IMG/VR virus record: IMGVR_UViG_3300047160_022640
Span: 1-64,000 of that record
Reading direction: 5' to 3' (one strand)
From: a virus
Taxonomy: Duplodnaviria > Caudoviricetes
DNA length: 64,000 nt
Below the pieces are notes generated by a model. That model was not told where the DNA came from. It ran no database searches and was given only the letters and a program-made list of their open reading frames with translations. Shown here piece after piece: positions 10,853 through 60,358 of this stretch; position 1 is the stretch's first letter, and each line of letters opens with the position of its first letter. Position numbers and translations under genes: made by a program.

Positions 10853-11377
10853 ATGCAAAAATTGCTCTATGTTTTCGGTTTCTGTTCACTGTTAATCCCT
10901 GCGGTTCTTCTCACGACTACCGCCTGCAACCTTCCGCCGAACGTCGCGACCAATGCGATCGCCACCGCGCAAGCCGCCGCACAGACCGCAACGACGCTCG
11001 TGAGCGACGCACAAGCCGCGTGGCCCGCAGTCAAGGCGCTCTTGCCGGCGGACAAGCAGGCGGCTGCTCAGGATGCCTTCGACAAGACGGTCTTCACCGC
11101 AAATCACGCACTCCTTGCGCTCAACGACGCAATCACTGCGGCGATCGCGGCGAACAATCCGACCTTCGACTTCACGGCGTTACTCTCCGCGCTCGGTGAT
11201 GCCGCAATGGAAGTGATCGCGGTGATTCAGGAGTTTCGCGGCTTGCCGGCGACGACGCCTGGACCCGCAGCTGCGCCGACACATGCGCCTCCGGAGCTCG
11301 ATGCGGCGATCACCGACATCAGTCGCGCGGCGTTCAAGCTCAAGTCTTCGAAGACGGGTCTTTCTTCTTCGAAGTAG
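10853..11377 (+). CDS. helical lipoprotein
   Basis: Signal peptide ending LLTTTA-C, Ala-rich helices. Confidence 0.7.
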   Translation: MQKLLYVFGFCSLLIPAVLLTTTACNLPPNVATNAIATAQAAAQTATTLVSDAQAAWPAVKALLPADKQAAAQDAFDKTVFTANHALLALNDAITAAIAANNPTFDFTALLSALGDAAMEVIAVIQEFRGLPATTPGPAAAPTHAPPELDAAITDISRAAFKLKSSKTGLSSSK

Positions 11378-11573
11378 GTGGCGGCGGAATGGGCGTGCGC
11401 AGATCGCGCAGAAACTCTTCGAGTTGACTGTCGAGCTCGCTTACCGCCGCGACCGCAGATCCTTCGCTGATACTTTCGAGCTTGGCCCGGTACGCCTGTA
11501 CGGCCGGGTGCTGACCGCTTTTCGCTGTCGGAGACGGGATCACAGTGGGGCGTTTTGACCGACGTTCGGTCAC
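11340..11573 (-). CDS. hypothetical protein
   Basis: Start codon overlaps the holin-like gene stop; helical composition. Confidence 0.5.
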   Translation of the reverse strand: MTERRSKRPTVIPSPTAKSGQHPAVQAYRAKLESISEGSAVAAVSELDSQLEEFLRDLRTPIPPPPTSKKKDPSSKT

Positions 11574-11851
11574 CGGTTGCTCCCGAACGCACGGCCTTGA
11601 GAGGTCATCTTGCGGATTTCCTCAACCGTATCGTTCATCTTGTTGACGTTGTCGAGTACCTGCTGCTGCAATTTGAGCGCCAGATCCGTGTAGTTTTTCG
11701 CATCTTGAATGCGCGCCTCACGTTCGGCAGTGAGCTCCTTGTCTTTGCTCCAGGCGATCCAGCCGAAGACAAATACGACGGCGCCGAGCAATCCCTGCTG
11801 GGCTAGCAGCGAAAGCAACGGTGAGACAACTTGCGCCGGCGGGGCATCCAC
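11570..11851 (-). CDS. BhlA/UviB-like holin candidate
   Basis: Single N-terminal TM (QQGLLGAVVFVFGWIAW) followed by a charged coiled coil. Confidence 0.6.
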   Translation of the reverse strand: MDAPPAQVVSPLLSLLAQQGLLGAVVFVFGWIAWSKDKELTAEREARIQDAKNYTDLALKLQQQVLDNVNKMNDTVEEIRKMTSQGRAFGSNR

Positions 11852-11909
11852 AGATTTGAACTATAGCAGCTTCAAATAGGGACCGGCTGTACGGTATTCT
11901 GTGGAAGCC

Positions 11910-12218
11910 ATGCCGGAACTCTCATCAAATCTGGAAACCAGGCTCACTGAATTTCTGGATACTGGGCCGCCGTTGAAGGAAATGATGCATCGGATCGAGA
12001 ACTGGCAGCTGGCGCATGATGCTGAGCACAAAAAGCTCGAAGAGGAGATGCGTCGAGACACGGCAAGCTACGGATTTCGGCTCAAATCACTCGAGGCTTC
12101 AGCCGGACGCGGGTGGGCAGGCGCGGTGCGAATGGCATTGATCATCATGCTCGCGGTCGGCAGCGGTTACGCCGTTCGAGCGGCCTCTATTCCTTCTTCT
12201 CCGCTTCAGGCGCACTGA
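11910..12218 (+). CDS. coiled coil plus C-terminal TM protein (XhlA/holin-like)
   Basis: Heptad region then MALIIMLAVGSGYAV. Confidence 0.5.
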   Translation: MPELSSNLETRLTEFLDTGPPLKEMMHRIENWQLAHDAEHKKLEEEMRRDTASYGFRLKSLEASAGRGWAGAVRMALIIMLAVGSGYAVRAASIPSSPLQAH

Positions 12219-12423
12219 TCGCGGGGGGCGGCTCTGTACCGTGTACGGTGCGGGCGAGCTCTTTGAGGTACGAGCCGCGTAACTCGTTCATTTCTTGGCG
12301 AATAGCGTTCGCCTCTTTCTCGAGCATCTTGATGCGCCCGGCGAGTTTTCCGTACAGGTCCTCGATGCGTTTGATTCGAGTTTCCTGTAGCTCAGACGGC
12401 GTCTTTTGGCGATGCTCGCTCAG
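12187..12423 (-). CDS. small coiled-coil protein, start uncertain
   Basis: Protein-like C-half RIKRIEDLYGKL...; only CTG (with GGAG SD) at the coupling position. Confidence 0.4.
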   Translation of the reverse strand: MSEHRQKTPSELQETRIKRIEDLYGKLAGRIKMLEKEANAIRQEMNELRGSYLKELARTVHGTEPPPAISAPEAEKKE

Positions 12424-12869
12424 GCGGCGCTCCTGCGAGGCAGATAGTAGACGACGAGCGCCCCGCCAACGACTGCGACGAGCGCGATACCGAGCCACGC
12501 GGTCGCTTTCGCGGCGTCCTTCGTGCTCTTCATCATCTCTTCGACTTGTGTCGCGAACGACGGAACCGGATCTGGGCGTTGCACCGTGTCGCTTGAACTC
12601 GTGACATCTGCTGTCGCGATCTCTGGGAATCCAGGTCCGTGCCATGGTGTCGGTACTGAGACGTCGAAGAGGTACCAGTCGCGCACCGGATCACTGTCGA
12701 AGTGCTCGGTCGTGCGCACCTTCACGGTCGCCTTGTTCGAGCTGAGCCATGCGCCGAAGGCGTCGGCGTCCGGCGCGAAGACGTCGACCCAGTAACGCCC
12801 CGCCGGGAGCGGATTCTGCGTTTCTTGAGCACCAAGCCCGATCAGACGCTCATCGAAAAAAACTTTCAT
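12420..12869 (-). CDS. tail-anchored membrane (virion) protein
   Basis: ATG 12869; beta domain, then C-terminal TM WLGIALVAVVGGALVVYY followed by PRR. Confidence 0.75.
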   Translation of the reverse strand: MKVFFDERLIGLGAQETQNPLPAGRYWVDVFAPDADAFGAWLSSNKATVKVRTTEHFDSDPVRDWYLFDVSVPTPWHGPGFPEIATADVTSSSDTVQRPDPVPSFATQVEEMMKSTKDAAKATAWLGIALVAVVGGALVVYYLPRRSAA

Positions 12870-13051
12870 CGTCGTCTCCGGCGCTTTCGGCCGCGGAAGG
12901 CGGACCAGACCTCTTCGAGGAACCATCCGGTGGCGGCTGTTGCTGCGCCACCGACGAGCGCGAGCGAAAACTCCGACGGCGCCGTCCTCGGGACAGTCGC
13001 GGTCTCCGCGAGGCCGAACTCGATAGGACGTCCGTTGCGGGTAACTGTCAT
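12866..13051 (-). CDS. small tail-anchored membrane protein
   Basis: TM followed by RGRKRRRRR. Confidence 0.7.
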   Translation of the reverse strand: MTVTRNGRPIEFGLAETATVPRTAPSEFSLALVGGAATAATGWFLEEVWSAFRGRKRRRRR

Positions 13052-13467
13052 CGGCGTGCTCTCCAGGAAGCGAGCGTCGCAATGGTCCCGACGGCGAGAC
13101 TCACCGCTGTCAGTATCGCGATCGTTTTGGACAAAGAATCGGCGCTAGTCGGCGTCGATATCTCCTGCTGAGCATCTCCAACCGGGAGGTAGACGCCGCC
13201 TGCGCGAAAACACCCTTCGACGAGGGCTCCTTGTGTGTCGGGCCCCCACACGTGCGGCTCTACGCGGATCACGGCGATGACGCCGGGAAGCGGAAAGCTC
13301 TCCGTCGCGCCGAGATCTACGGAGAGATCGGCCGCTGCCGCCATCGCGCGCGCGGCAAGCGCATCCGGAATAGGGCCGTCTACGCTGGTCCAGGGCCGAT
13401 AGCCGATGAGCGGCGCTATCGACGGACATTGCGCTGCGAGCTCGGGGCCTACGCCGAATTGCGCCAT
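13048..13467 (-). CDS. tail-anchored membrane (virion) protein
   Basis: Starts MAQFGVG; C-terminal TM followed by WRARR. Confidence 0.75.
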   Translation of the reverse strand: MAQFGVGPELAAQCPSIAPLIGYRPWTSVDGPIPDALAARAMAAAADLSVDLGATESFPLPGVIAVIRVEPHVWGPDTQGALVEGCFRAGGVYLPVGDAQQEISTPTSADSLSKTIAILTAVSLAVGTIATLASWRARR

Positions 13468-13577
13468 CTCTCGCTCGAAAGTCTACGTGTGTCGACTTGA
13501 CAGGTCCAGTTACGTAGGCGCAGTATGCCTAAAGCAGTACAAATGTCATGCGACAGGCAGGATGAAAGGCAGGTCAG

Positions 13578-13787
13578 GTGGCAACGACCAAGCAATTTCA
13601 GAAGAAAAGCAAAAAGGTCGAAGTCAAGCTGACCCCTGATCAGCACGAAATGGTCATCAGGCGTGCCGAGAAAAGCGGCATCAGGCTTGCCACTTGGATG
13701 CGTGTGGTTTTGATGCAGGTGGCTCGGAGTCAGCCGGCAAATGACGGCTATATCCGCATTCGAGAGCCGGACAGGACGACGGTATGA
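13578..13787 (+). CDS. ribbon-helix-helix DNA-binding protein
   Basis: KVEVKLTPDQHEMVIRRAEKSGIRLATWMRVVL; heads the morphogenesis operon; TTGACA at 13497-13502. Confidence 0.75.
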   Translation: MATTKQFQKKSKKVEVKLTPDQHEMVIRRAEKSGIRLATWMRVVLMQVARSQPANDGYIRIREPDRTTV

Positions 13788-14314: not shown

Positions 14315-14655
14315 AACTTCTCCCGCAACCGAATCAAGTGCTCGGCAGGATCGCGATTACGAAGACGCAGTCAGACATTATCGTGTCGACTGACCCGACC
14401 AAAGGCGTGTCCAAGTTCTTGTTCGTCGAATCGGTTGGCGAAGAGGTCAAAGGGATTCGTCCAGGCGACTTCGTTCTCCCGAGAATTATCAACAACATCT
14501 GGCTCAGAGGAGGCCGTCTTCACCGCGGTGTTGTCCCGATCGACGAGATTGTCTGTACGGTACGCGACGTACCGCTCAGCGACTTCGTCGACAAAGACGG
14601 TAAGCCGTTCGTAGCCGATGAAGAGGCGTCGGCTGAAGAAGCGAGGCCGTCATGA
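14311..14655 (+). CDS. GroES/Cpn10-like co-chaperonin
   Basis: LLPQPNQVL...TQSDIIV...VESVGEEVKGIRPGDFVL...IDEIVCTV follows the Cpn10 pattern. Confidence 0.65.
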   Translation: MKLLPQPNQVLGRIAITKTQSDIIVSTDPTKGVSKFLFVESVGEEVKGIRPGDFVLPRIINNIWLRGGRLHRGVVPIDEIVCTVRDVPLSDFVDKDGKPFVADEEASAEEARPS

Positions 14656-15266
14656 GCTGCGCTTGCCGCACTCCGGTGCGTCGCGCTCCGTTCGCGGAGG
14701 GCGCGACGATAGGACGCCTTCGTATTCGAGAGGCAGTCAGGCCGCGCGCCCCGCGTAACGTCGAGCCAGTTGTGCTCGCCGGCGCCAAGAGCGGCACGCG
14801 CTGCCGGCCGTTCATCATCGTACAAAAGGATCCGGATAAGTTCGCGGCGTGCAACGCGCTCGCCGACGAAATCGGGCCGCTCAACGATCCGAAGAAAGCC
14901 TTCCGCTTGATCGAGGACGCTATCGGCGACGAGGTCAACGAGGTCTTCGGTGTTCTCATGCTCGATCTGCATCAGCGCATGAAGGGTATGGCTGAAACCG
15001 GTCGCGGCGAGCCGACGAGCGTGATGGCACCAATCGGACCGACGGTGCAAGCGGTGCTCGGAACCGGCGCCGAGGGGGGCGCGATCATCTTCCACGTTCA
15101 TCCATCCGGCATCGAGGCGTATCCTAGTGACGCCGACATCGAGACGACGGAAGCGTTCGCTGACGCCTTCGCGGCCAGCGAAGTGCGTCTTCTCGATCAC
15201 ATCATCATCGGCGGTGATGCGCGTCGTCGTAGCTACTACTCTTTCCGTGAAGACGGGGGGATCTGA
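14652..15266 (+). CDS. RadC-like JAB/MPN metalloprotein
   Basis: E(VF)...HVHPSG...PSDAD...LLDHIIIG...YYSFRE. Confidence 0.9.
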   Translation: MSCACRTPVRRAPFAEGATIGRLRIREAVRPRAPRNVEPVVLAGAKSGTRCRPFIIVQKDPDKFAACNALADEIGPLNDPKKAFRLIEDAIGDEVNEVFGVLMLDLHQRMKGMAETGRGEPTSVMAPIGPTVQAVLGTGAEGGAIIFHVHPSGIEAYPSDADIETTEAFADAFAASEVRLLDHIIIGGDARRRSYYSFREDGGI

Positions 15267-15667
15267 TGACTCAAATTGAATTGCCGCCGCCATCGTCCAA
15301 GCATCCGACGGTTGCGCGGGTCGTTTCGATGCCGCCGTCGATGGCGCTCGGTACCGACGAGGTCGTGTGGCAGCTCGGCGGCACGAATCCGATGAACAAC
15401 TTCACGATCGTGCGCATGTTCGATGAAGGTGAAGCGGGCGTTGTGATCTACTCGGTAGACAAGGTATCGCTCTCGTGCGCGCGCCAGCGTATCCCGCAGT
15501 TCATGCTCAAGTTCGTCGAAGAGGGGATGCGAATCGATCTCTTCATTCGCGAACTCGAGGCTGCCGAAAGCGACGATGAGGATCCGGACGAAGACGAACC
15601 GGAGGAAGACGAACCAGAAGAACCTGAAGACACGCCCGCAGCCGGCGTGCAGCCACCAACTACTTGA
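15266..15667 (+). CDS. hypothetical protein with acidic tail
   Basis: Coupled; ESDDEDPDEDEPEEDEPEEPED. Confidence 0.7.
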   Translation: MTQIELPPPSSKHPTVARVVSMPPSMALGTDEVVWQLGGTNPMNNFTIVRMFDEGEAGVVIYSVDKVSLSCARQRIPQFMLKFVEEGMRIDLFIRELEAAESDDEDPDEDEPEEDEPEEPEDTPAAGVQPPTT

Positions 15668-15669
15668 TC

Positions 15670-17328
15670 ATGGCAGCGCGAAAAAGGCGACCGAATGGGC
15701 TCGGGGATCTCGACAACGGAAAGTTGTCGACTCCTTTACAACAGGACGAAAGTGACATTCTCGACGAAGTCGGCGCGGAGCGCGACGAAGAGACCGGTGA
15801 ATTCGTAGCCGACGAGGAAGAAGTCAAACGACTTGGTGCGCTCGATCCGGCTACAGTGCTCGAGAATCGGCGGAAAGATACGATCGTCGGTAAAAAGCGC
15901 GCGAATCAGAAGAACGTCACGCTCAACTCGGGTGACGTGCTCGAAAACTATGAGACGCTGCTTAGAATTTGGCCTTCCAATTCGATCATCATCTACGTTC
16001 GGCGGCTTACCGGACCGCCGACACAGAATGTGATCAACAACTATCCGCGATCAGGGGTCGAACTCTACACAGCGCTTCTCGGTATTCACGGATCAAGAGA
16101 AGTATCCGAGTACGAGGTCAATTTTCAGGACGCGTCGACTCGGCAGTATCGCACCAAGGGGCGAATTACACTGCCCGACACGCGCCCCGCGCCGCAGCAA
16201 GGAGCTCCCATGCAGCCGCCGTACGGCTATCCGCCAGGGTACCCACTTCCTCCAGGCTACCCGCCGCCGCCTGCGGGTTATCCGCCTCAGGGGTATCCGC
16301 CGCCGCCTGCGCCGCAAGCCGCAGCTCCTGGAGTGCCGCCGCCTCCGCCGGTCGTGCACGTGAACGCGCCACCCGCGCCCGACCTCGGTGCGAATGTCGA
16401 AATCTTACGACAGATCTTGTCGCTGGCACAGACAATGCAGCCGCCCGCACCCGCACCCGCACCCTCTGTCGCGCCTCCACAGCCGGTACTCCCGCCGCCT
16501 CCCGCGACGTCGGACCCGAACGCGATGCTCGTCTACCTGGTGCAACAACTCATCGCGGCTCGCGCGGCACCGGCACCCGTACCCGTCACGGCGCCAGTTG
16601 CTACGCCCGTGCACGAGCCGCCGCAAGGCCCCCCGGGGCATATCTGGGTCGAGCAGCTCCGTACCTGGGTGCCGCTCGAGAGCCTCGCTCGCGCGCTAGC
16701 GCCGGCTCCGCGCGGTCCCGGACCGAGTCAAGGGGGTGGCGGCGGATATCCGCCTCCAGGAGGCGCGTACCGCGGACGTGAGGAAGGACGACCTTACTAC
16801 TCGCAGCCGCCGCCCCAACCGCAGCGGGAGCGGTCGCCCGTCGATCAGCTCCGCGAGGCGGTCACGCTTCTTCGAACTGTCTCAAATTTGACGCAGGAGG
16901 TCGGCGAAATACTTCCCGGGGGACGCGAGGAATTAGGGCCCGCGCCGACGCCGACACCAGATGATCCGGTTCGCTTCATGAAAGTCGGCGACATCAACAT
17001 GGGGTTCGATCCGGAGAGCGGCGGCTTCCGCCCGTGGGAAACGCTTACTGCGAACGCCGACAAGATCATCAAGACGGTCAACGAGCAGATCGTCAAACCG
17101 ATACAGGAACGTCAGCATCCGCGGTCGTCTCAGCGGCGCGTGCACCCTCCTGTGCCCGGGGTCGTCACGATGATGCCCGGCGACGAGCCGCCGCCAGGGT
17201 ACGTGGCGGTTCCGGTCGATCAGCTGCCGCCCGCACCTGTCGACGTGCCTCCTCCCATTTCTTCGACGCCAGCGGCCCCACCATGGGGGGCGCCGGTAAT
17301 TCCCGTCGAAGGAAACGGTATCGGATAA
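15670..17328 (+). CDS. large proline-rich low-complexity protein (assembly/scaffold candidate)
   Basis: Globular N-terminal ~170 aa, then PPYGYPPGY/poly-Pro tracts interspersed with short helices. Confidence 0.75.
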   Translation: MAARKRRPNGLGDLDNGKLSTPLQQDESDILDEVGAERDEETGEFVADEEEVKRLGALDPATVLENRRKDTIVGKKRANQKNVTLNSGDVLENYETLLRIWPSNSIIIYVRRLTGPPTQNVINNYPRSGVELYTALLGIHGSREVSEYEVNFQDASTRQYRTKGRITLPDTRPAPQQGAPMQPPYGYPPGYPLPPGYPPPPAGYPPQGYPPPPAPQAAAPGVPPPPPVVHVNAPPAPDLGANVEILRQILSLAQTMQPPAPAPAPSVAPPQPVLPPPPATSDPNAMLVYLVQQLIAARAAPAPVPVTAPVATPVHEPPQGPPGHIWVEQLRTWVPLESLARALAPAPRGPGPSQGGGGGYPPPGGAYRGREEGRPYYSQPPPQPQRERSPVDQLREAVTLLRTVSNLTQEVGEILPGGREELGPAPTPTPDDPVRFMKVGDINMGFDPESGGFRPWETLTANADKIIKTVNEQIVKPIQERQHPRSSQRRVHPPVPGVVTMMPGDEPPPGYVAVPVDQLPPAPVDVPPPISSTPAAPPWGAPVIPVEGNGIG

Positions 17329-17552: not shown

Positions 17553-18650
17553 ATGAGACAGTATGTCGTCCACCCCGGCGATAGCCCTGCCACGATCGGA
17601 ATCGCGTACGCGGGATGCCCGAAATGCGCGGTCGATCTCATCAAGGCAAACCCGCACAAGTCGACTCGGACGCTGCCGAACGGATTCAAAACATTCACGT
17701 CGCTTGGAGTCGGGGAGGTACTCAATCTCCCAGACAAGTGGCTGGACGGTACCTTAGACACTCGTCCGAAAGCGTACTTTCTCGCGCTTCCCTACGCGGA
17801 CGGTATTACGCCCTCGACGCTCGGTCTCGCGGCAGCCGGTGTGCTCTCAGACTTCGCAACGCTCGACGAAGCGACGGCGCTTGTAGGCACACTGCCCGGG
17901 CTCGATGACGTCTCATTCAGTGCTGCGGTACCCGACACCGCAAATCTGATCGATTCCTCGATCACCAAAGAGGTTGGCGACATGTCCGGCGCTGCGGTGA
18001 CGCACGCCGAGAATGTGCGCACGAGCACCTCGGCGGCGCGACAACGCAACGCGGACTTGAGCGCCGCGCTCGCGGCTGGTGACGAGGCCGGCGCAACGAA
18101 GGCGCGACTCGATATCCAGAACGCGTTTTCGACAGCGATCAGCGACGCCAAGATCGCGCTACAGAGCTACTACGACAATCCTCAGATCGTTGCCAGCACG
18201 ACAGCGTCGGCGTTTTCGCCCACACTCGTGGCAGCGGCACAAGCGGCGTCGACCGCGATTGCTTCGGATGCAGGCTATTGCGCGTCCGTCGCGCGCACCG
18301 GAACATCGGTCAATTCTGCCATCCACGCCTTCAAGACGGCCTGGAACGCCTCGCAACCGAATCCGGTACCGATCAACACTGGCAACTACGAACTGCAAAC
18401 AGCGGCAGCGCTCGCGAGCGTGATTGGAAGCGCTCCAGCAGCGTGCGGCGCGCATATTGTTGTGTCGCCTCCTCCGGCACCGGTACCGACTGTGCTCGGT
18501 CCGATCGCGACGGTTCCGCAGAAGCAACCAATGAGCGCGGCGTCGATGGCAGGAATCAGTTTACTCGGCGCAGGAGCTATCACCGGCGCTGTTTATCTTA
18601 CGACGCATTCTAACTTTCGAGGCCGACTAGTCCGTAGGATACGAGGATGA
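17553..18650 (+). CDS. LysM-like domain, helical body, tail-anchored virion protein
   Basis: YVVHPGDSPATI...LIKANP...GEVLNLP; C-terminal TM and basic tail. Confidence 0.75.
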   Translation: MRQYVVHPGDSPATIGIAYAGCPKCAVDLIKANPHKSTRTLPNGFKTFTSLGVGEVLNLPDKWLDGTLDTRPKAYFLALPYADGITPSTLGLAAAGVLSDFATLDEATALVGTLPGLDDVSFSAAVPDTANLIDSSITKEVGDMSGAAVTHAENVRTSTSAARQRNADLSAALAAGDEAGATKARLDIQNAFSTAISDAKIALQSYYDNPQIVASTTASAFSPTLVAAAQAASTAIASDAGYCASVARTGTSVNSAIHAFKTAWNASQPNPVPINTGNYELQTAAALASVIGSAPAACGAHIVVSPPPAPVPTVLGPIATVPQKQPMSAASMAGISLLGAGAITGAVYLTTHSNFRGRLVRRIRG

Positions 18651-20290
18651 TCGACAAGCCAGTTCCGGGGGTAAAAACCGACGCGCGATCGCATCCGTCA
18701 GGCTTCAAAGGGGCTCGACTGTCGCTCGATGAGTGCGCGCAACGCTCATGGCATGCCCGCATGAGTCCGCGCCTGCGCGCGTGGGTGACGCAGCAGCTCG
18801 CGGCGTGTGGCGCATCGCGTGGGAGTCGCCGAGAAAAAGCGCAGTGTATTCTCGATGCGTTTCGCAAGAAGGTGCCGTACATCGCCGACCCGGTGATGGG
18901 CGAGTTCATGGCGACGCCGAATCAGTTGCTCTGCCTTGATGAAGGAGGACTCTGTGTCGTGGGCGGGGACTGCTTTCCGGAGGGAACGCTTCTGCTTCGC
19001 GATGATTTTTCGTTCGTACCGATCGAAAAAATAAAAATCGGAGAACGGATCTGGGGGAAAGATCGATGGTCTACGGTTACGCAGAAATGGGCCAAGGGAA
19101 CGCTCCCGATCGATGCGATCGAGATGAGCAATGGTTCAACGGTGCATTTGACGGCCGATCATAAGATATACGTCGGCGCTTGCGAGCACGGCGGTCGTTG
19201 TGAACAGGCGCAATGCCGTCAACCGCATAAGCGAATCGTGAATTTTGATCAACGAATCAAAATTGCCGATTTGCGCGAGGGAGACACCTTGCTTCAGCCG
19301 AAACGCATCGATTTCGGAGACGGAAACGTAGATCAGGATCGGATGTACGTTGAAGCACTAGCGTTAGCGGACGGATGGACGAAGGCCAGTAAAAATCCAG
19401 ATCTACCTCATCTCAGTTTCTACGTAGCCGGAAGAGACGGAAAGCGAAAAGAAGCTCAGAAATTAGAGGTAAAAGCAATCTGCGAACGCCTTGGAATCGA
19501 TACCTACTGGCACGAACGGTACATCGAGATCAAAGATCGCGCATGGGCTTCGCGTATCGCCGCTCTCGGATCAAGAGCTCGATTCAAAGCGCTCGAGACA
19601 ATCAATTTAGATGAAAGCACAGCAGCTGCTGCTCTTCGTGGGCTAATGGCGGATAGCACACAGAATACCGGTTCGACGCTACGAACTTATTCGACAACTA
19701 GCCGTCAGATGATGATTCAGGTTCGAGTTTTGCATCGTATGTTCGGAAAAATGACGAGCGTACGGATGTTGACGCCAGAACAGCACGGAGGAGCCGGAAA
19801 GCATCCGCTCTGGCGTGTCGAACAACGCGAAAAATACGCGCTCAACCTGTCTGTTCGCTCGATTGAACGTGCCGTTCGAGAGGTCCCTTGCTGGGATATC
19901 TCGACAGACGACCACTACGTGTATCTTCCGGAGCACGATGTGACGGTCAGCAATTGCGATGAGCATGCGATCACGCTCGCAGCGGCGATGATGTCGATCG
20001 GAATTCCCGCGATGATCGTCGGTAGCAGTCATCACGATCCGGCTGAGACGCCGACGCACGTGTACATGGCGTTCGAGGACGACATGGGCGAATGGGTCCG
20101 AATGGACGGAACGATTCAGCTGCCAGTCGGTAAGGTTTCCAAGTACCGACGCGAGTGGTGGGTCGAGCCAGGCAAGGAAGCCAAAGATACCGGCACCGGT
20201 GACTTCGTCGGCATGCGTGACGACCACGGGGACGGATCGCTGTCAGGGCCTCCAAGTCTCATCGATCTCTACTACTCAGGCATCCTATAG
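18647..20290 (+). CDS. transglutaminase-like cysteine protease (Cys-His-Asp) containing an intein
   Basis: Spliced product (219 aa) reads VPY..DP...GGD-CDEHAITLAAAMMSIGIP...THVY...MDGT. Confidence 0.85.
   Translation: MIDKPVPGVKTDARSHPSGFKGARLSLDECAQRSWHARMSPRLRAWVTQQLAACGASRGSRREKAQCILDAFRKKVPYIADPVMGEFMATPNQLLCLDEGGLCVVGGDCFPEGTLLLRDDFSFVPIEKIKIGERIWGKDRWSTVTQKWAKGTLPIDAIEMSNGSTVHLTADHKIYVGACEHGGRCEQAQCRQPHKRIVNFDQRIKIADLREGDTLLQPKRIDFGDGNVDQDRMYVEALALADGWTKASKNPDLPHLSFYVAGRDGKRKEAQKLEVKAICERLGIDTYWHERYIEIKDRAWASRIAALGSRARFKALETINLDESTAAAALRGLMADSTQNTGSTLRTYSTTSRQMMIQVRVLHRMFGKMTSVRMLTPEQHGGAGKHPLWRVEQREKYALNLSVRSIERAVREVPCWDISTDDHYVYLPEHDVTVSNCDEHAITLAAAMMSIGIPAMIVGSSHHDPAETPTHVYMAFEDDMGEWVRMDGTIQLPVGKVSKYRREWWVEPGKEAKDTGTGDFVGMRDDHGDGSLSGPPSLIDLYYSGIL
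18971..19954 (+). mobile_element. intein (328 aa) with degenerate LAGLIDADG endonuclease
   Basis: Starts CFPEGT; block B LTADHKIY; ALADG and LRGLMADS; block H YSTTSRQM; ends VSN before Cys+1 (penultimate Ser rather than His). Confidence 0.9.
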
Positions 20291-20308: not shown

Positions 20309-20505
20309 CAGGGCATGCAATCGTCATGTCCTGATTATTTATGTGTGTGCGTATCTCGCGCTACGATCTCTTTGGGTCTGTGTGCGACAGCGACGAACGT
20401 AACTGATTAGTTTGGTTGTCGTTTTCGGGACATGACATCGGACACGGTTGATCGAACTCACATCGTGATTACGTGCGCGCCCGAGGCGCACTTTTCTGCC
20501 ATCGA

Positions 20506-20534
20506 TTGACTCGATGTGTCCGACTTGAAATTCT
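20506..20534 (+). promoter_or_regulatory. candidate sigma70-type promoter of the core/capsid operon
   Basis: TTGACT-N17-AATTCT in an AT-richer 260-bp intergenic gap. Confidence 0.35.
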
Positions 20535-20550
20535 GTTCGCGTACCGTGAC

Positions 20551-22239
20551 ATGGGCCTCTACGACGATCCTTCGGGAGATCTCAGCGAAGCGCGACGAAG
20601 CACGCGCAGCGCTGAGAAACGTCACTCGTTGGGGGCGACCGTCGGCGCTCGCAAGAGCTCTTCGGTTCAATCACTGCTCTTCGATCGAAGCGTCTGGACG
20701 CCGGCGAAGGCCAAGCAGTGGGCCTCCTCGCACGGGTACAAAAGCGGGAAGGTGGACGTCACCGACCGTTACATCCGAATCCGTCAACTCGATCCTTCGG
20801 GGTTCAAGGTCAAGCGCACCATCCCCTTCGGCAAGGACGCCTCGGGCATTCGCGCCGTAATTGTCAGAGAGGAAAGCCAAGGTATGGCAACCGTCAAAGC
20901 ATCTCGTCGTCGTCGCCGCCGCCACACGAAGAAGAAGACCGCCGCCAAGCGCCCTCGTCGACGCCGCGCGACGCGAAGACACGCGCGTCGTCGCAGAGTG
21001 AAGGCCGCTGTCACCGTGAGCGCGCCGCGCCGCCGGCGCCGCCGAGCCGCGAAGGTCGTTCGTCGTCGTCGACGCCGAGTGCACGCGGTTGCCGCTCAGG
21101 TTCAAGCACCTCGTCGCCGTCGACGTCGGCGTCGCGCGTCGCATGTGATGGCCTGGCGCGGAGACGCGGAGGGGCATCGCCGTGCGGCGAAGAAGGGGCA
21201 TCGTCGTCGTAAGGCGCGGCGCGCCCCGAAGCGTCGGCGTCGTTCGCATCGTCGTCGAGCACGCGAGACGGTGATGACCGAGGCCCCGCGCCGTCGGCGA
21301 CGTCGTCATCGCCGCGCGCGCGCCTACGCCGCCGCCCCTCGCCGTCGTCATCGCCGCATGCGCATGCACGCCTTTACCGGCGGCGGTCGCATGGGAATGG
21401 CCGAACTCGCGACGAGTGTGCTCACCGCTGGAATCGGGTTCGTTCTCGCTGACGGTCTCGATCGATTCTTCGCGACGTACAACCCGTCGGCGACGACGGC
21501 GCCGCCCGCGGACAAGTTCACGTCGACTGGCGCAGGGACGCTCGGCAACGGGCTCAACGTCGCCACTCGGCCGAACATGTACCGGATCGGTGTCGGTGCG
21601 GCTGCGGTCGCGGCGCCGCTCGGTGGCGCGGTGCTCGCGAAGCGGAGTCCGATGCTCCGTTCGGCAATGGAGGGCATGGCGGTCGGTGCCGGCATCAAGT
21701 TCTTCTCGATGCTGTGGTCGAACATCTTCGTGCCGCTCTTCACTCCGAAGGACACGTCGATCGGTGGGCTCCAGAAGAGCTACGTCGCTCGGCTGTATCC
21801 GATGGAGGTGGCGGCGCATCTCAACCTGCAGGCAAACCTGAAGAACGTCGCGAGCGCAGGCTCCGGCGCTCTCTCCGGCGCGCCGCAGCTCGGGATGGGC
21901 GCACCCGATGTGGGTCCGTTCGCGCTCAGCGATCAGTACCCCACAATTCAGCAGAACTGGGGCACTGGCGGCGAGTCGCCGTACCCAGATGCGGCGCAAG
22001 CGCTCCGCAGCAGGGCGGGCATGAGCGGGCCCGGTAGCGACTACCCGACCGCGACGCAGGCAATGCGCGCCGCGACCGGGATCGTCGGCTACGAGCCGGG
22101 TCCGCCCCCAGGATCAGGTCCCGGCCCGAAGGCGTCGCCGCATACCGATCCGTCCTGCGGCTGCATCGGAGACGATCTGACCATCGGTATGGCCGGTGTT
22201 TTCAGCGGCCCCGAAGAGGAATCACCCTTCAATCCCTGA
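20551..22239 (+). CDS. arginine-rich (protamine-like) core protein with membrane segments
   Basis: N-terminal small domain, ~170 aa of poly-Arg repeats, hydrophobic helices, Gly/Pro tail; second in-frame ATG with SD at 20884. Confidence 0.8.
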   Translation: MGLYDDPSGDLSEARRSTRSAEKRHSLGATVGARKSSSVQSLLFDRSVWTPAKAKQWASSHGYKSGKVDVTDRYIRIRQLDPSGFKVKRTIPFGKDASGIRAVIVREESQGMATVKASRRRRRRHTKKKTAAKRPRRRRATRRHARRRRVKAAVTVSAPRRRRRRAAKVVRRRRRRVHAVAAQVQAPRRRRRRRRASHVMAWRGDAEGHRRAAKKGHRRRKARRAPKRRRRSHRRRARETVMTEAPRRRRRRHRRARAYAAAPRRRHRRMRMHAFTGGGRMGMAELATSVLTAGIGFVLADGLDRFFATYNPSATTAPPADKFTSTGAGTLGNGLNVATRPNMYRIGVGAAAVAAPLGGAVLAKRSPMLRSAMEGMAVGAGIKFFSMLWSNIFVPLFTPKDTSIGGLQKSYVARLYPMEVAAHLNLQANLKNVASAGSGALSGAPQLGMGAPDVGPFALSDQYPTIQQNWGTGGESPYPDAAQALRSRAGMSGPGSDYPTATQAMRAATGIVGYEPGPPPGSGPGPKASPHTDPSCGCIGDDLTIGMAGVFSGPEEESPFNP

Positions 22240-22251
22240 GCCCGTCAACAC

Positions 22252-22281
22252 GAGCGGCGTGATCGAAATGTCACGCCGCTC
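22252..22281 (+). promoter_or_regulatory. stem-loop upstream of capsid candidate 1
   Basis: Perfect 11-bp stem GAGCGGCGTGA/TCACGCCGCTC, followed by an A-rich tract. Confidence 0.7.
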
Positions 22282-22353
22282 ATCAACAAGAAGCAACGAA
22301 GCCAGAAAGTTATACCCGTGTCGGCCCTATGAAACGGCGGGTGGGAGTGCAAC

Positions 22354-23721
22354 ATGCCAAGCAAGAGCATCATCGGTTCGGTCACGAAGAGTTACGGAAA
22401 CGACAAGCCGAAGGTTCGGCGTCCTCAGTTCGGCGGCGGCGTCGAAGCGCACGACATGCGTCCCTCGAAGACGCCTGATGGTAGGGGCGGTTTCCTGGGA
22501 GCCGCCGCGGACGCGGCGCAGAAATGCATCCGCTGCAGCTTCGGCAACATCCCCGTGATCGAGGAGGTCGTGTGGACGATCCCTCTCCCGCTCACGAGCG
22601 AAGAGGCGCAGTCGACGCTCGGCGATACGGTGAATCTGCTCTCAGGCAGCTCCGCCGTCCCCGGCGTGGCGTCGATCGACTCGACGTTCCTCATCAACGG
22701 GATCTTGCAGACCGACATCCTCGCTCAGGGTATCGGCGTGCATGTGTTCCACGAGCCGATGACGTTCTCGACGATCGGTAACGCCTTCGTTGCGCCGTCG
22801 ACGACGGTTTCGCCGCCTCCTTCGCCGGACGTCTACACGGCGAACGATCTCGTGAATCGCGCAATGAGCACGCAGGTACTCGCCGACGGTTCGAACTTCT
22901 CGCCGGCGGTGTTCGAGTTCGGCGTCGATGCCTGGCGCGCCGGGTGGAATTTCATCAACGCCTACCAGTTCCAGTGGAAGACGTCGCAGCGCGAACTCGT
23001 TCTCAACGAGCTCGCCGCCGACGTTAGCTACTTCGGTTCGTTCGCAGACGCCGAAGCGAGCGGCACGAGCGAGGTTGCGGTCATCGAGTTCGTGGCCGCG
23101 GTCAACGCGCTCTACCGAAGCAAGGGATCGGCAACGATCTTCCTCCCCGTGAACTTCCGTCGCGTGGGCTCAGTGAACTCGACGAGCGGCACGAACAACG
23201 TGGGCATCTTCCACCCGACGCGCGATTTCGATCTCGCACCGGTGACGTGGGGCGGTCTGCGCTGGCAGGGGTACGGCTGCCGCGGGCAGATGTACCGCCC
23301 GATCGAGAGCCCGTGCTTCCTCGAGCGCGGGATTCCTATCGGTATGCTGTTCGTGGTGCAAGACGCGGTGCACCAGGCCGCGATGCTCGCTGCCGTGACG
23401 ATCGACAACGATCCTCTCGGTACGAACATCGCTCCGGACGAGAATCTGAACTGCACGACGGCCGTGCTTCCCGCGCCCGCGACGGCGGGTACTCCGACGG
23501 CTGGTGCGATCACGGCCGGAGGTAGCAACACGATGCTCGAGCAGACACTCGACTCGACACCGGTGCTCGTCACCCAGTCGGTCAACGTCTGCCGCGAGGT
23601 ATTCAAGGGAGGCATTCTCAAGCTCGCGATCAAAATCAAGGGTTGGGAGATGCCCGGCGGTTGGAAGGCGTACTGCGCAACCAATCTGCCGACTGTCATG
23701 AGCACGACGAGCGCGGGCTGA
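22354..23721 (+). CDS. major capsid protein candidate (jelly-roll type)
   Basis: 455 aa beta-rich, strongly GC3-biased codons, basic N-arm, ends FKGGILKLAIKIKGWEM; position downstream of protease and core genes. Fold not demonstrated. Confidence 0.55.
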   Translation: MPSKSIIGSVTKSYGNDKPKVRRPQFGGGVEAHDMRPSKTPDGRGGFLGAAADAAQKCIRCSFGNIPVIEEVVWTIPLPLTSEEAQSTLGDTVNLLSGSSAVPGVASIDSTFLINGILQTDILAQGIGVHVFHEPMTFSTIGNAFVAPSTTVSPPPSPDVYTANDLVNRAMSTQVLADGSNFSPAVFEFGVDAWRAGWNFINAYQFQWKTSQRELVLNELAADVSYFGSFADAEASGTSEVAVIEFVAAVNALYRSKGSATIFLPVNFRRVGSVNSTSGTNNVGIFHPTRDFDLAPVTWGGLRWQGYGCRGQMYRPIESPCFLERGIPIGMLFVVQDAVHQAAMLAAVTIDNDPLGTNIAPDENLNCTTAVLPAPATAGTPTAGAITAGGSNTMLEQTLDSTPVLVTQSVNVCREVFKGGILKLAIKIKGWEMPGGWKAYCATNLPTVMSTTSAG

Positions 23722-23749
23722 CCCGAAGCAACTAGACGTCCGAAGTTAG

Positions 23750-23788
23750 TCGAGCGGCGTGGCGAAAGGACAGCGCCGCGCCGCTCGA
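23750..23788 (+). promoter_or_regulatory. stem-loop downstream of capsid candidate 1
   Basis: 15-bp stem TCGAGCGGCGTGGCG/CGCCGCGCCGCTCGA (one G-U); shares its stem sequence with the 22252 hairpin. Confidence 0.7.
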
Positions 23789-23809
23789 TTCGTTTGAGGA
23801 GATTTTTCG

Positions 23810-24415
23810 ATGACTCAGCCGCGTGACGATCAAATCCGCAACCTCGCTCTGTACGCTCCGAAGACAGCGTATGGGATGATCATCGGTGTTCCGCGTGTAC
23901 CGACGGTCCTCGAGATCCCGATTCAATTCTCCTCGAGCACCGTGAACGCGCCTCCGGTCGTGACGAACCTGCAGAACAACCTGACGCAGGACACCGTCAT
24001 CGAGCGCATGTCGTTCAAGCTCGCTCAGCAGAACAGTTTCCCCGGGAGCCCGTTCCAAAGCCTCTACTTCAATCAGTTGAAGCAGTCCGGAACCGGTATC
24101 GGTGTACAGATGGCCGTTTACGGCGGCCCCAAGTACAACGTCAACGACACGTTCGTCGATCTCGCAACGCTCGCTGACGTGTTCGCCGTGACGTGGCCGC
24201 AAGGGTGGCCGCTTCCGAAGCAGAGCAACGTCAAGGTGAGCGCGATACTGCTCGATACGCCGGTCAGCGTTCCGTACAACTGCACGATCACACTGCTCGG
24301 TTGGCAATTCCTAGACAAGACGATCGACGACATCTCAGACGCCGATGCGCGCGCTCGTCTGAACAAGCTCGGCATTCAAACCCCTGACTTGAGCGTGCTC
24401 CTTCCGCAGAAGTGA
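23810..24415 (+). CDS. second capsid protein candidate (single jelly-roll size)
   Basis: 201 aa alternating beta strands; last strand CTITLLGWQF echoes IKIKGWEM of the upstream protein; GAGGAG SD. Confidence 0.5.
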   Translation: MTQPRDDQIRNLALYAPKTAYGMIIGVPRVPTVLEIPIQFSSSTVNAPPVVTNLQNNLTQDTVIERMSFKLAQQNSFPGSPFQSLYFNQLKQSGTGIGVQMAVYGGPKYNVNDTFVDLATLADVFAVTWPQGWPLPKQSNVKVSAILLDTPVSVPYNCTITLLGWQFLDKTIDDISDADARARLNKLGIQTPDLSVLLPQK

Positions 24416-24418
24416 TCG

Positions 24419-25303
24419 ATGAACCAGCGCACCGCCAACGTGATTCACCTGCAGACGCACCCGGATGGTGTGGCAGGTGGATTGCGTTCGGTTCTCGATA
24501 ACGGGCGCTTCGAAGTTTTTACGGCGGGCCCGAATCCGGAATTCGGGTTCATCGGCAGCGATCCGTACGGAACAAACAACTACACGGGCCTGGTCGTTCC
24601 TCCGATTCCGAGCTCTGCAAACGGCGGCGCGCGGTACCTGTTCATGCTCGCACGGGCGAGCTTCGGCACCGGCGAGCAGAGCTCAGATTATCTCGGCGTG
24701 CGGCTCGTCGGTATTCGCCAGTACGCCGAGCTCATTGCCCGCATTCCGGCGGGAAGCGGTCCTCTTGGTAGCGGGCCGCCCGCTGGAAGCACGGTCACGT
24801 TTCGCAAGGAGATTCGGAGCCCGCTCTGGCACCCGCCGGACGGCGATATCTCGTGGCACGTGATGATTTTGCCGAAGACGCAGCGGGACACACGTCATCC
24901 GGCGAACGCTGACGGGCAGATGTACCAGGACTCGTTGTCTCCGGCGGTTCTGTTTCAAACACCGGTCCCGTACGCACCGCCCAACGCCGGGCGCCCGTGG
25001 GGGAAGCCGCTCGCCGGCGCTCTCGGCAACATCCACGAGCTTCGTTACAACTGGCGCGACCGGGACAGCAGCTACGTGCTCGATGTGCCTATCCCGGTAC
25101 CGTGCGACATCGCGCTCTTCGCAAGCGTGCGCCAGAACGATCCGACCCTCAACCCAGCATTTTCGGACACGAGTGTGACGCAAGCGTTCGCGGCACTCTC
25201 GGATGAAGACAAGTTCCTAGTCGCATATCACCAGTACGCGCAGTACGGCGTGATCGCGGGCGGACTCATCTTCGATCAGAACATCGGGAGCTGCGTGCCA
25301 TGA
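24419..25303 (+). CDS. beta-rich virion protein (minor capsid/penton candidate)
   Basis: 294 aa, strands such as VRLVGIRQY and DIALFASV. Confidence 0.5.
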   Translation: MNQRTANVIHLQTHPDGVAGGLRSVLDNGRFEVFTAGPNPEFGFIGSDPYGTNNYTGLVVPPIPSSANGGARYLFMLARASFGTGEQSSDYLGVRLVGIRQYAELIARIPAGSGPLGSGPPAGSTVTFRKEIRSPLWHPPDGDISWHVMILPKTQRDTRHPANADGQMYQDSLSPAVLFQTPVPYAPPNAGRPWGKPLAGALGNIHELRYNWRDRDSSYVLDVPIPVPCDIALFASVRQNDPTLNPAFSDTSVTQAFAALSDEDKFLVAYHQYAQYGVIAGGLIFDQNIGSCVP

Positions 25304-25542
25304 CGAGCGTCGAAGCGGGCATATTCGCCAGCGTTGTTGGCGGCATGATCAACGGCGCTATCGGCGGGTTCGCGGCCGACCACGCCGATCATCCGGTCAT
25401 CAAGGGCGCGCTCATTACCGGACTCGTATCTGGTGTCGCTTCGGCAATCTGGTTTGCCGGTTTCGGTGCGAAGCAGCAGCAATCGAGCGGACAGGTATCA
25501 GGATCACTGGTGCCACGCCAGATCCATGCGAGGTTCCTCTAA
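25300..25542 (+). CDS. small glycine-zipper membrane protein
   Basis: Two hydrophobic Gly-rich helices; resembles 10620-10847 in architecture. Confidence 0.7.
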   Translation: MTSVEAGIFASVVGGMINGAIGGFAADHADHPVIKGALITGLVSGVASAIWFAGFGAKQQQSSGQVSGSLVPRQIHARFL

Positions 25543-26237
25543 TGCCTACGCCGGCACAAGCCTACGGCCATCCCGATTTCGTTACGGACGTCCCCGTGCA
25601 AGGCCCCACCGACGAGGGAATTCGCTCGAAGGACTGCTTGTACGTCAACACACATATTCCGGCGCAACCCGCGTGCGCCGATTGCAAAGGACCGATTCCT
25701 ATGTGGGCACAGCAGAATACACCTCACGGCGTAGGCGAGCTGATTTCGTACGGCGGGCACGGAGCGCTCGGCTTCGCGCTCGGCACCGTCAACGATCCAG
25801 AAATCTGGAGCAAGTTGACTCCTGATCAGCAGATGTGGGTGACCAACTCGCTGAACACCCTGAACTCGAAGATCATGGCGGCAACCGGATCGAGCTGCCC
25901 GACATGGGGGCCAGCCATCAACCTCGCCGGCGGCTGCTTTCAGACGTGGTTCAACAACAACTACGGCGGCGCCAATAGCGGCGTGATGACGCTGCGTACG
26001 GATGGCGTCTTCGATCAAGACACGCTCTGCGCGCTCATCACGGTCACTGGGATGCATCAGACCGACTTCCCGACGGCCTTCCCGGATCCCAACAAGCAGT
26101 ATTGCCAGTCGCCGGGATCGGCAACGGCGACGAAGAAGATTTTGACGGCGAAGATGCTCGGTTTCGGCGCGCTCGGCGTTGTCGGGCTCGGCGGAATCGC
26201 TTACGCCGCAATTCACGGCAAGAAGCGCCGGCGCTGA
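25542..26237 (+). CDS. tail-anchored virion protein with PG-binding-like motif
   Basis: DGVFDQDT motif, Cys pairs, C-terminal TM followed by GKKRRR. Confidence 0.7.
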   Translation: MPTPAQAYGHPDFVTDVPVQGPTDEGIRSKDCLYVNTHIPAQPACADCKGPIPMWAQQNTPHGVGELISYGGHGALGFALGTVNDPEIWSKLTPDQQMWVTNSLNTLNSKIMAATGSSCPTWGPAINLAGGCFQTWFNNNYGGANSGVMTLRTDGVFDQDTLCALITVTGMHQTDFPTAFPDPNKQYCQSPGSATATKKILTAKMLGFGALGVVGLGGIAYAAIHGKKRRR

Positions 26238-26264: not shown

Positions 26265-27446
26265 ATGTCGTTCTATCTAGTGCAGCGCGGTGATTCTCCG
26301 GCGAGCATCGCTCGACGACACGGCGTGTCGATAGGGTCGCTGCTCGGCGCAAACCCGCACAAGCCTGTCGTTGCGGTCGGTCAAGTACGAACGTGGCAAT
26401 CGCTTGGACTCGGCGAGCGCTTGAACCTTCCAGTGGGCGTCGGCGCAATCACGCCAGCGCCGCTGAACGCAGTGCACAAACAGATCAGCATCAACAACCC
26501 GGGACCGCATGTCGCGGATGCGGATGTGGCGCTCTGGCAAACCATCGTCGGAGCAACCCCTGACGGTCTCTTCGGACCGAACACGCAAGCAGCGACGAAG
26601 GCGTGGCAAGCCGCGCACGGGCTTGCTGCGGACGGCATCGTCGGTCCGAAGACGTGGGCCGCTGCAACGTTGGTGGCCGCTCCAGCTGCAGCCGCCGCGT
26701 CACTTCCTCAGATCGCCACGCAGATCTTGTCGCAGCTCCCGTCTATCCCGGGTATCACGCCAGCTGCCGCTCCCGCTCCTGTCCCTACGGCAGCGCCCAC
26801 CGTAACCCCGGCGGCGCCGGCGGCGGCAGCGATCCTCGCATCAGGAATCGACCCGTGCCTCTCCGACAACGCGCAGATGGTGTGCGCGGCGCAGCGCGTG
26901 CTCGGTGTCGCAGCCGATGGCAAATACGGCAACGACACCGCGACGGCGTTGCGGAAGTTTATACCGGGCGCTCCTCCCGGATGCAGCCCACGCCCTGCTT
27001 GGTGGACGCCGACGGGACAGAGCAACTGCAACACGGTAGCTGCTGCGCCTTCGCTTCCTTCGCTCCCTTCCCTCCCGCTACCGGTCCCCAGTGCTGCGCC
27101 GAGTCTGCCGTCGATCCCGTCGGTGCTTCCGATGCCGTCGACCTCGTCGACGCCGCTCCCGCCGATCGTCCTCCCGACGAACCCACCGACCGTAGTTCCG
27201 CTGCCATCGGTGCCGTCGATTCCGTCTGTCTTGCCGACGACGGCACAACCCGGTCCTGTTCAGCCTACGGTGACGGCGCCCGCGAAAGCGGGCATCAGCC
27301 CCGGCGTCATGGTCGCGGGCGGTCTCGGCGCCGTAGCACTCGTCGCGATGGTGGCGATGAGCGGAAAACACGGAGGCGGCCGAGCGCCAGCGAGCCGTCG
27401 ATCAGGCGGCCATAAGGCGCGCCGCACTTCCAGGAAGCGAAGGTAG
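26265..27446 (+). CDS. LysM plus two peptidoglycan-binding domains, Pro-rich stalk, tail anchor
   Basis: YLVQRGDSPASIARRHGVS..LLGANP; DGLFGPNTQAATKAWQAAHGLAADGIVGPKTW; ADGKYGNDT; TM and basic tail. Confidence 0.9.
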   Translation: MSFYLVQRGDSPASIARRHGVSIGSLLGANPHKPVVAVGQVRTWQSLGLGERLNLPVGVGAITPAPLNAVHKQISINNPGPHVADADVALWQTIVGATPDGLFGPNTQAATKAWQAAHGLAADGIVGPKTWAAATLVAAPAAAAASLPQIATQILSQLPSIPGITPAAAPAPVPTAAPTVTPAAPAAAAILASGIDPCLSDNAQMVCAAQRVLGVAADGKYGNDTATALRKFIPGAPPGCSPRPAWWTPTGQSNCNTVAAAPSLPSLPSLPLPVPSAAPSLPSIPSVLPMPSTSSTPLPPIVLPTNPPTVVPLPSVPSIPSVLPTTAQPGPVQPTVTAPAKAGISPGVMVAGGLGAVALVAMVAMSGKHGGGRAPASRRSGGHKARRTSRKRR

Positions 27447-28108: not shown

Positions 28109-33736
<5,628 letters not shown>

Positions 33737-57672: not shown

Positions 57673-57859
57673 GACGCGTGCGGCGCGCTACCGGCGGGAG
57701 CACGGCGAGTTTCTCGAGCACAGTCTTCGTCCGCTTCCGCCGCTATCGCCACCGCCGCCCCCGCGCGCGAACGGATGGTTCGCGCGCATGCTCTGGTTTC
57801 TCGTTGTGGTCTATGGAACCTTCATGGGTATCCGGTGGCTGGCTCAGAGACTCTTCTAG
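57623..57859 (+). CDS. small membrane protein
   Basis: C-terminal TM MLWFLVVVYGTFMGIRW. Confidence 0.5.
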   Translation: MAHEDDRSSKEPTTVDETRAARYRREHGEFLEHSLRPLPPLSPPPPPRANGWFARMLWFLVVVYGTFMGIRWLAQRLF

Positions 57860-58458
57860 TCCGTACCCTGTTCCGCCAAACCGATGCCGGTGACCAAGAA
57901 GTCGTTGCCGAAGTCGCATAGCACGCTCATCGCACCGCCGTTGAAGGTGCCGAGACTGCCGTCCGGCTCATGCAAAAGCGTAGGGAACGCCAGGTTGAAT
58001 GTGACCGGCGTTCCCGACGGGCGCGTTGGACTGTACTGAAGCGTCGATGTCGTTCCACCGATATCTACCGGCGCACCGACCGATGTCGTTGGAGTTTCTA
58101 CCATGTTCAAGAAACACGAGATGTGACCGTAGTTCCACCCGCTCGGACCGGTGCCGTTCTGCATGGCGTAGATGGTGACCGACAGCGGCATCGTTAAGAG
58201 ATGATCGCGTGAGATCGACCACTGAAACTCGCAGTGATCTGTCGCTCCGTGTTGGCTCTGCGGTATGCCGACGATGTTCCCGCGAAAGACGGGGATCGGA
58301 CCTCCGTTGGCAAAGACGCACGAGTTTATTTTCGCGCTACCGCCAGAGAACGTCTTGGAGTCAACAACGAGCTGCGCGCCGGCGCGACGTCCGTGTATCG
58401 CCAACAAAGCGATCCCAACAACAGTGAGCAGAAGAATCGAACTGATTTTTTTGATCAT
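57856..58458 (-). CDS. secreted beta-rich protein
   Basis: Signal peptide MIKKISSILLLTVVGIALLAIHGRRAGA; four Cys. Confidence 0.7.
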   Translation of the reverse strand: MIKKISSILLLTVVGIALLAIHGRRAGAQLVVDSKTFSGGSAKINSCVFANGGPIPVFRGNIVGIPQSQHGATDHCEFQWSISRDHLLTMPLSVTIYAMQNGTGPSGWNYGHISCFLNMVETPTTSVGAPVDIGGTTSTLQYSPTRPSGTPVTFNLAFPTLLHEPDGSLGTFNGGAMSVLCDFGNDFLVTGIGLAEQGTD

Positions 58459-58489
58459 TGACCGTCCCTTTTGTAGTCGCTCATTAGCC

Positions 58490-58726: not shown

Positions 58727-58729
58727 GTT

Positions 58730-60333: not shown

Positions 60334-60358
60334 GCGTGATAAGAATACCTTATCACGC
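60334..60358. other. palindromic candidate recombinase crossover site
   Basis: GCGTGATAAG-AATAC-CTTATCACGC, 247 bp upstream of the recombinase start. Confidence 0.6.

Follow-up and report, generated by a model that had tools for sequence, protein, structure and literature searches.

The window, i.e., the whole 64-kb stretch of DNA that was analysed, is the first part of one 87,768-bp virus record from which a terminal repeat is absent. It contains three adjacent open reading frames (ORFs) on the + strand, located at 22354-23721 (455 aa), 23810-24415 (201 aa), and 24419-25303 (294 aa), with exactly the coordinates and the strand given in the original prediction. The GC3 of this trio tops the genome (0.82, 0.78, and 0.75, respectively), and Shine-Dalgarno-like motifs are found ahead of the genes of the 455-aa and 201-aa proteins. 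The first gene, encoding the candidate major capsid protein, is flanked by two GC-rich hairpins on the same strand, one upstream with a 12-bp stem (22252-22281; fold of 22240-22353, z -2.1) and one of 17 bp just 3' of the gene (23748-23790; fold of 23722-23809, z -3.55), which have the stem core GAGCGGCG in common.

None of the three proteins has a match in Pfam or PHROG scans, and PDB chains yielded no match with E < 0.1 to any of the proteins or to their profiles; moreover, hhalign found no relation among the three families (probability 1% or less). The hydrophobic-x-G-W ending that had been noticed in the first two proteins is present in both (IKIKGWEM in the 455-aa and ITLLGWQF in the 201-aa protein), but it does not hold as a sign of real kinship, because profile-profile comparison pairs the two endings at only 1% probability, so that the resemblance is no more than chance.

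The trio belongs to a block encoded on one strand from ~13.8 to 57 kb, the head of which is made up of small ORFs without family and of a RadC-like JAB-domain protein (14652-15266, + strand; Pfam RadC 3.4e-20; core 5/5). On the same strand there follow a 554-aa Pro-rich protein (15664-17328) and a 365-aa tail-anchored protein (17553-18650), both core genes (5/5) without Pfam or PHROG match; the latter has an N-terminus that is LysM-like by eye, an Ala-rich middle, and a hydrophobic C-terminal segment. The next core gene (18647-20290, + strand) encodes a 547-aa transglutaminase-like cysteine protease candidate (Pfam Transglut_core 1.8e-5, Hint 0.007), which is split by an intein of ~308 aa (residues about 110-417); in most relatives residues 1-109 are joined directly to 418-546. 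Directly 5' of the capsid candidate, the gene at 20473-22239 (+ strand; core 5/5) encodes a 588-aa protein in which an Arg-rich, protamine-like region with long Arg runs precedes hydrophobic helices and a Gly/Pro tail; it is a candidate DNA-condensing core or membrane protein.

On the 3' side of the trio, again on the + strand, are found a Cys-rich tail-anchored membrane protein of 231 aa (25542-26237; core 5/5), whose C-terminal TM segment is followed by KKRRR, and a 393-aa wall-binding protein (26265-27446) in which LysM (Pfam 1.7e-4) and peptidoglycan-binding (PG_binding_1, 8.2e-15) domains are combined with a stalk rich in Pro, a TM anchor, and a tail of basic residues. An 1875-aa collagen-repeat protein (Pfam Collagen 1.3e-89) is the product of the gene at 28109-33736 (+ strand), with which a series of candidate fibre genes begins. 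At the end of the block, collagen-repeat genes (up to 1875 aa) are arranged around a glycosylation cluster including HtrL, a B12 radical SAM protein with an intein, and GT2; a TM-anchored SLT transglycosylase is also located here. The remaining genome is devoted to replication and recombination, with Prim-Pol, UvrD-, RecD-, and SNF2-type helicases, AAA_24, a PD-(D/E)XK nuclease, and an exonuclease, and also encodes ParB, a TnpB/Cas12-like protein, a D12 methylase, and a weak integrase-like gene.

The conservation of this arrangement is extensive. The homologues of the 455-aa protein at 90% clustering are more than 392, mostly with 65-88% identity and on contigs up to 160 kb, and in a library of 1.8 billion proteins the family comprises at least 169 clusters at 50% identity. 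The gene is found on 29 IMG/VR contigs, and the order 554-365-547-588-455-201-294-231 is kept in 29/29 of these loci; in relatives at 24-44% identity, genes of 195-256 aa and then of 262-351 aa lie directly 3' of the 455-aa homologue. The trio, with its order kept in 29 loci and in distant relatives, is far more than a chance association. Five relatives are closed by a 127-bp terminal overlap at 80.3, 85.6, 111.5, 116.3, and 124.6 kb, so the 88-kb genome is plausibly near complete. The comparison by tblastn of the proteins of this genome with five full relatives defined a universal core of 17 genes, all at 10.2-36.7 kb. Besides the trio and the Arg-rich protein, this core includes the two protease-like genes and a number of small membrane proteins, with no ATPase among its members. 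The replication modules are swapped between relatives, as in G005, where PolA and VapE are found in place of the Prim-Pol present here.

The stretch is contained in 22 soil metagenome runs, with no RNA run among the sequencing runs containing it; it has no match in 50,697 GenBank phage records, and the lineage is undescribed in the literature searched. A non-viral origin, namely a large plasmid-like circle whose block builds a cell-surface or spore-coat-like layer, would agree with the circular 80-125 kb replicons carrying ParB, an integrase-like gene, and variable replication modules, as well as with the occurrence of collagen-like glycoproteins and tail-anchored wall binders on bacterial surfaces. 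However, 72,556 plasmids gave no match and conjugation genes did not come to light; in 185,579 species genomes the 455-aa protein is all but missing, with matches confined to two ~5.7-kb contigs of one Candidatus Binatia MAG; an Arg-rich DNA-condensing candidate beside lattice genes is not easily reconciled with a surface layer; and IMG/VR classes 29/29 of the contigs as viral. We therefore regard this explanation as very improbable.

The Binatia contigs are also the sole cellular lead to a host, and a weak binning lead. The Myxococcota host originally proposed is unsupported, since only these contigs match, the relative described as a 'provirus' in IMG/VR (G015) has only viral genes at both ends, and no tRNA genes were found; nothing points to Myxococcota. 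A bacterial type of host is suggested by the RBS motifs and by the peptidoglycan-binding, LysM, SLT, TnpB, ParB, CoiA, and D12-methylase genes.

The 455-aa protein was modelled by AlphaFold2 from a 75-sequence alignment with a pLDDT of 82.9 and a pTM of 0.82. The model comprises ~20 strands, an N-terminal helix (50-60), and helices at the C-terminus, preceded by a disordered N-terminal arm in which G27 and G29 are nearly invariant; as predicted, this protein, the most conserved and most codon-biased structural protein, is positively modelled as a beta-sandwich jelly roll, not as an HK97 fold. No Foldseek match in PDB or BFVD reached E <= 0.001, and the weak rows are jelly-roll capsids in nearly every case; in the ESM Atlas, whose own model of the protein is poor, the sub-threshold feature matches (0.82-0.86) are to small SJR capsid clusters and serve as leads only. 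Single-domain jelly rolls of 110-150 residues align across a span of the model from ~65 to 435, and because of this span a single barrel is probably shared by the two ends of the chain, its jelly-roll core being formed by strands located within residues ~65-190 and 393-435. The ~200 residues between them (191-392), a beta-rich part with ten strands and three helices, would then represent an inserted domain that may form a tower, rather than the second half of a tandem double jelly roll (DJR).

The latter point bears on the possibility that the 455-aa protein is a very divergent, trimer-forming DJR capsid protein similar to those of Bamfordvirae, with the 201-aa protein as an SJR penton, as P3 and P31 of PRD1. 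This is unlikely in our view, since DJR proteins are matched over a single one of their two jelly rolls, the alignment of single domains over ~65-435 implies one barrel and not two in tandem, and an FtsK/HerA ATPase is not found in the core.

The 201-aa protein (23810-24415), with 555 homologues, was modelled by AF2 from 33 sequences, including relatives at 21-39% identity, with a pLDDT of 83.9, and the model shows a clean jelly roll of eight strands at residues 28-168, with helices on its flanks. The models of both the 455-aa and the 201-aa protein are beta-rich. In the VIA comparison of the 201-aa model the rows include PHM (7.9), Orf virus D13-like (7.5), PBCV-1 (7.3), HHIV-2 (7.1), EhV MCP (7.0), SPV1 (6.9), STIV A223 (6.9), SH1 (6.2), ASFV p72 (6.1), FLiP (5.9), HCIV-1 (5.6), and P23-77 VP17 (5.3), and picornavirus VP1, nucleoplasmin, GOLD domains, and phage cement proteins are likewise at 6-7. 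Foldseek probabilities were 0.97 for HHIV-2, 0.95 for SPV1, 0.90 for both HCIV-1 and STIV, and 0.82 for SH1, with no row at E <= 0.001 against PDB and BFVD. On the basis of this model, the protein is a candidate second capsid protein or penton. The third member of the trio, of 294 aa (24419-25303), is conserved down to 27% identity and lies downstream of the 201-aa gene in all loci; it gave no match in Pfam, PHROG, or the PDB profile search and no usable match in the ESM Atlas.

The original prediction had also pointed to the lack of tailed-phage genes, and this is borne out. When the ORFs from 13.8 to 62 kb with a length of at least ~130 aa, together with several small core ORFs, were scanned with Pfam and PHROG, terminase, portal, HK97 capsid, and tail families were not matched, and hallmark families were likewise missing when the complete 87.8-kb record was searched in six frames. 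The scans cover recognisable hallmark genes; very distant forms, for instance a remote HK97 homologue elsewhere in the genome, may escape profiles. Terminase or portal genes in the flanking sequence, which would have spoken against the prediction, were looked for in the whole record and not found. In this genome and four circularly closed relatives, Pfam Phage_capsid, TerL_ATPase, and Phage_portal each responded in 0/5 genomes while the controls responded, and Terminase_6N was found in 0/5 relatives, two of them closed.

These results weigh against the idea that the virus is a tailed phage so divergent that the profiles miss its terminase, portal, and HK97 capsid proteins, and that the trio consists of accessory beta-sandwich virion proteins for decoration, cement, or fibres. 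The matches of the 201-aa model with cement and decoration proteins (KHP40, Pam1) and with fibre domains, and the many ORFs without any family, are in its favour; nevertheless, no hallmark family responded here or in the closed relatives where the controls did, no conserved ORF is of terminase or portal size with the exception of the collagen and glycosylation genes and the 554-aa Pro-rich protein, no conserved ORF has a Walker A motif other than the helicases and AAA_24, and tail, tape-measure, and baseplate matches are none. Such a phage is accordingly given very little credence.

The A32/FtsK-type packaging ATPase, for which a search had been suggested, is absent from this genome: Pfam DUF87 and FtsK_SpoIIIE, a family profile, and a Walker A scan revealed no HerA/FtsK-like ATPase, and only the helicases and AAA_24 carry a Walker A motif. 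A 313-aa ORF (57856-58797, minus strand) that is syntenic to the HerA-like ATPase of relatives is not an ATPase. In relative G005 a 326-aa HerA/FtsK-like ATPase is encoded (Pfam DUF87 3.8e-7; Walker A GRTGSGKT), and in G001 and G002 the HerA-like ATPase lies within ~3 kb of ParB. Altogether, six records were queried with the protein and ten others with a profile, and this ATPase was detected in 7/16 related records; it is present in 3/5 closed genomes and absent from 2/5, and is therefore placed outside the core. Pfam DUF87 and FtsK_SpoIIIE gave 0 matches in the closed relatives as well, apart from that one ATPase, while the control genomes responded. A universal packaging motor is therefore unrecognisable in the lineage.

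With a probability of roughly 0.6, the trio builds the shell of tailless viruses of soil bacteria that have large genomes (80-125 kb) and jelly-roll shell proteins and that would form a family not yet described. What the analysis shows is the conservation and order of the genes, the folds predicted for the 455-aa and 201-aa proteins, and the lack of recognisable hallmark genes. The functional statements rest on predicted structures and gene context, from which we infer the capsid role, the membrane, and the motor-free assembly; in particular, the virion is probably membrane-containing and tailless. The 455-aa protein would be the major shell protein, with a jelly-roll base and a large beta-rich insertion, the 201-aa protein a second shell or vertex (penton) protein, and the 294-aa protein a third shell-associated one. 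The circular genome may be condensed by the Arg-rich membrane protein encoded just upstream and then wrapped by a membrane carrying the tail-anchored wall-binding and wall-cutting proteins; the jelly-roll lattice would successively enclose the membrane with no packaging motor, as in the archaeal SPV1, and collagen-like glycosylated fibres would be exposed on the surface. Large genomes with this type of capsid were considered a property of eukaryotic viruses; a jelly-roll lineage of 80-125 kb that is widespread in soil and has no packaging motor in its core would break the size limit of prokaryotic jelly-roll viruses, contribute a bacterial member to the discussion of where vertical jelly-roll capsids come from, and make one ask how DNA of ~100 kb gets into such a shell when an ATPase is lacking.

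A wider reading, which we advance tentatively and consider somewhat less likely than not, is that of a realm-level new lineage of bacterial viruses in which the SPV1-like motor-free design is scaled four- to six-fold. Here a protamine-like membrane protein would condense a circle of 80-125 kb inside an inner membrane, a jelly-roll lattice, and self-glycosylated collagen fibres. If this reading is true, the lineage would be the first with large genomes among prokaryotic jelly-roll virus groups, and would represent the bacterial equivalent of what has been proposed as the ancestral state of viruses with vertical jelly rolls.

As regards known systems, the lineage has no established place in Portogloboviridae, Helvetiavirae, or the DJR viruses, because genome size and host type differ and, for the last two, also because of the packaging ATPase. 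Prokaryotic DJR viruses have genomes below 20 kb (PMC8812541) and, in most cases, a packaging ATPase; a protein-primed polymerase is not encoded here, and only one jelly roll of the Tectiviridae-type proteins (PRD1 P3/P31) aligns here. Sphaerolipovirus genomes are about 30 kb (PMC12643093), and viruses of the Helvetiavirae/Singelaviria type (HCIV-1, HHIV-2, SH1, P23-77, and Simuloviridae) have 16-30 kb and an FtsK-HerA ATPase, in contrast to the 88 kb and the core without ATPase described here. With respect to their two vertical single jelly-roll MCPs, the 201-aa protein is predicted to be a single jelly roll and the 455-aa protein a jelly-roll core plus a part of ~200 residues; the latter is about twice the size of VP4 or VP17, the order here is large then small, and the structural matches do not exceed those with unrelated jelly rolls. 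The original interpretation as a whole is partly supported.

SPV1 combines a jelly-roll shell and an inner membrane with a condensed core of nucleoprotein and a circular dsDNA, and lacks a packaging ATPase (PMC8459092, PMC8812541). Portogloboviridae differ in their 20-kb genome and hyperthermophilic archaeal hosts from the 80-125 kb, the soil origin, and the bacterial-type RBS and peptidoglycan-binding genes found here; there is no sequence similarity, the candidate core protein here is Arg-rich and has TM helices, with no kinship to VP1 of SPV1 implied, and the major protein of this lineage is of 455 aa with a large insertion. A packaging ATPase was not recognised in the core of this lineage, and a nucleoprotein core and a membrane may be conjectured from the 588-aa Arg-rich and the tail-anchored proteins. 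Since the core contains Arg-rich membrane, tail-anchored wall-binding, and protease-like genes, an SPV1-like virion is suggested, with a jelly-roll shell, an inner membrane, condensed DNA, and no motor, and SPV1 is the closest working model, ahead of the sphaerolipoviruses.

The 455-aa candidate major capsid protein (window 22354-23721) begins with an N-terminal arm, residues 1-49, that is disordered in the model and in which G27 and G29 are nearly invariant, the family consensus being R..GLG..P. During maturation, the protein may be cleaved here by the product of one of the two protease-like genes of the conserved core (17 genes that the window genome has in common with five full relatives). 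The gene itself is bracketed by two GC-rich hairpins, located at 22252-22281 (fold z -2.1) and 23748-23790 (fold z -3.55), which have in common the stem core GAGCGGCG. A possible role for them is to delimit a dominant monocistronic transcript or to make it more stable.

Upstream of the capsid module, the transglutaminase-like cysteine protease candidate (18647-20290, + strand) contains an intein of about 308 aa, at residues about 110-417, which is carried by the window genome and by three relatives' loci (L006, L012, and L021); in most relatives the protease candidate is without the intein and residue 109 is joined directly to 418. Since the junction reads ...GGD/CFPEG...VSN/CDEHA, the +1 Cys and the catalytic Cys predicted in the GDCDEHA motif may be one and the same residue.

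Changes are also found within the capsid module of relatives. At the locus L027 of one relative (11284-12608, + strand) the gene of the 201-aa predicted jelly-roll protein is present in two tandem copies, 47% and 63% identical to the copy of the window genome, a natural duplication of this small capsid-type gene. In L003, the homologues of the 201-aa and 294-aa genes are separated by an inserted gene for a 507-aa HNH endonuclease (Pfam HNH_3; 12071-13594, + strand), and in L017, L019, and L027 the start of the 294-aa homologue is shifted ~0.5–1.2 kb further downstream; therefore, the module may have been repeatedly invaded by mobile elements.

A 444-aa beta-rich protein without an assigned family (60336-61670, + strand) is kept in four of the five relatives at 52–63% identity and may be an additional virion or vertex protein; its gene adjoins an integrase-like gene (58999-60177 in the window) both in the window genome and in the related genome G005.

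A HerA/FtsK-like ATPase of 326 aa (DUF87, Walker A GRTGSGKT) is encoded by G005 at L035:14700-15680 (- strand). Its distribution across the lineage is patchy (7/16 records, 3/5 closed genomes), with further holders in G001, G002, G004, G006, and G011, and in G001, G002, G006, and G011 it lies within longer open frames of 600–730 aa; accessory packaging, partition, or defence are candidate roles.

G005 (L035-L040) and the window genome share the virion core, whereas their replication modules are non-homologous, consisting of VapE and a UDG-domain family A DNA polymerase in the former and of a Prim-Pol and helicases in the latter; among relatives, exchange of the virion module is independent of that of the replication module.
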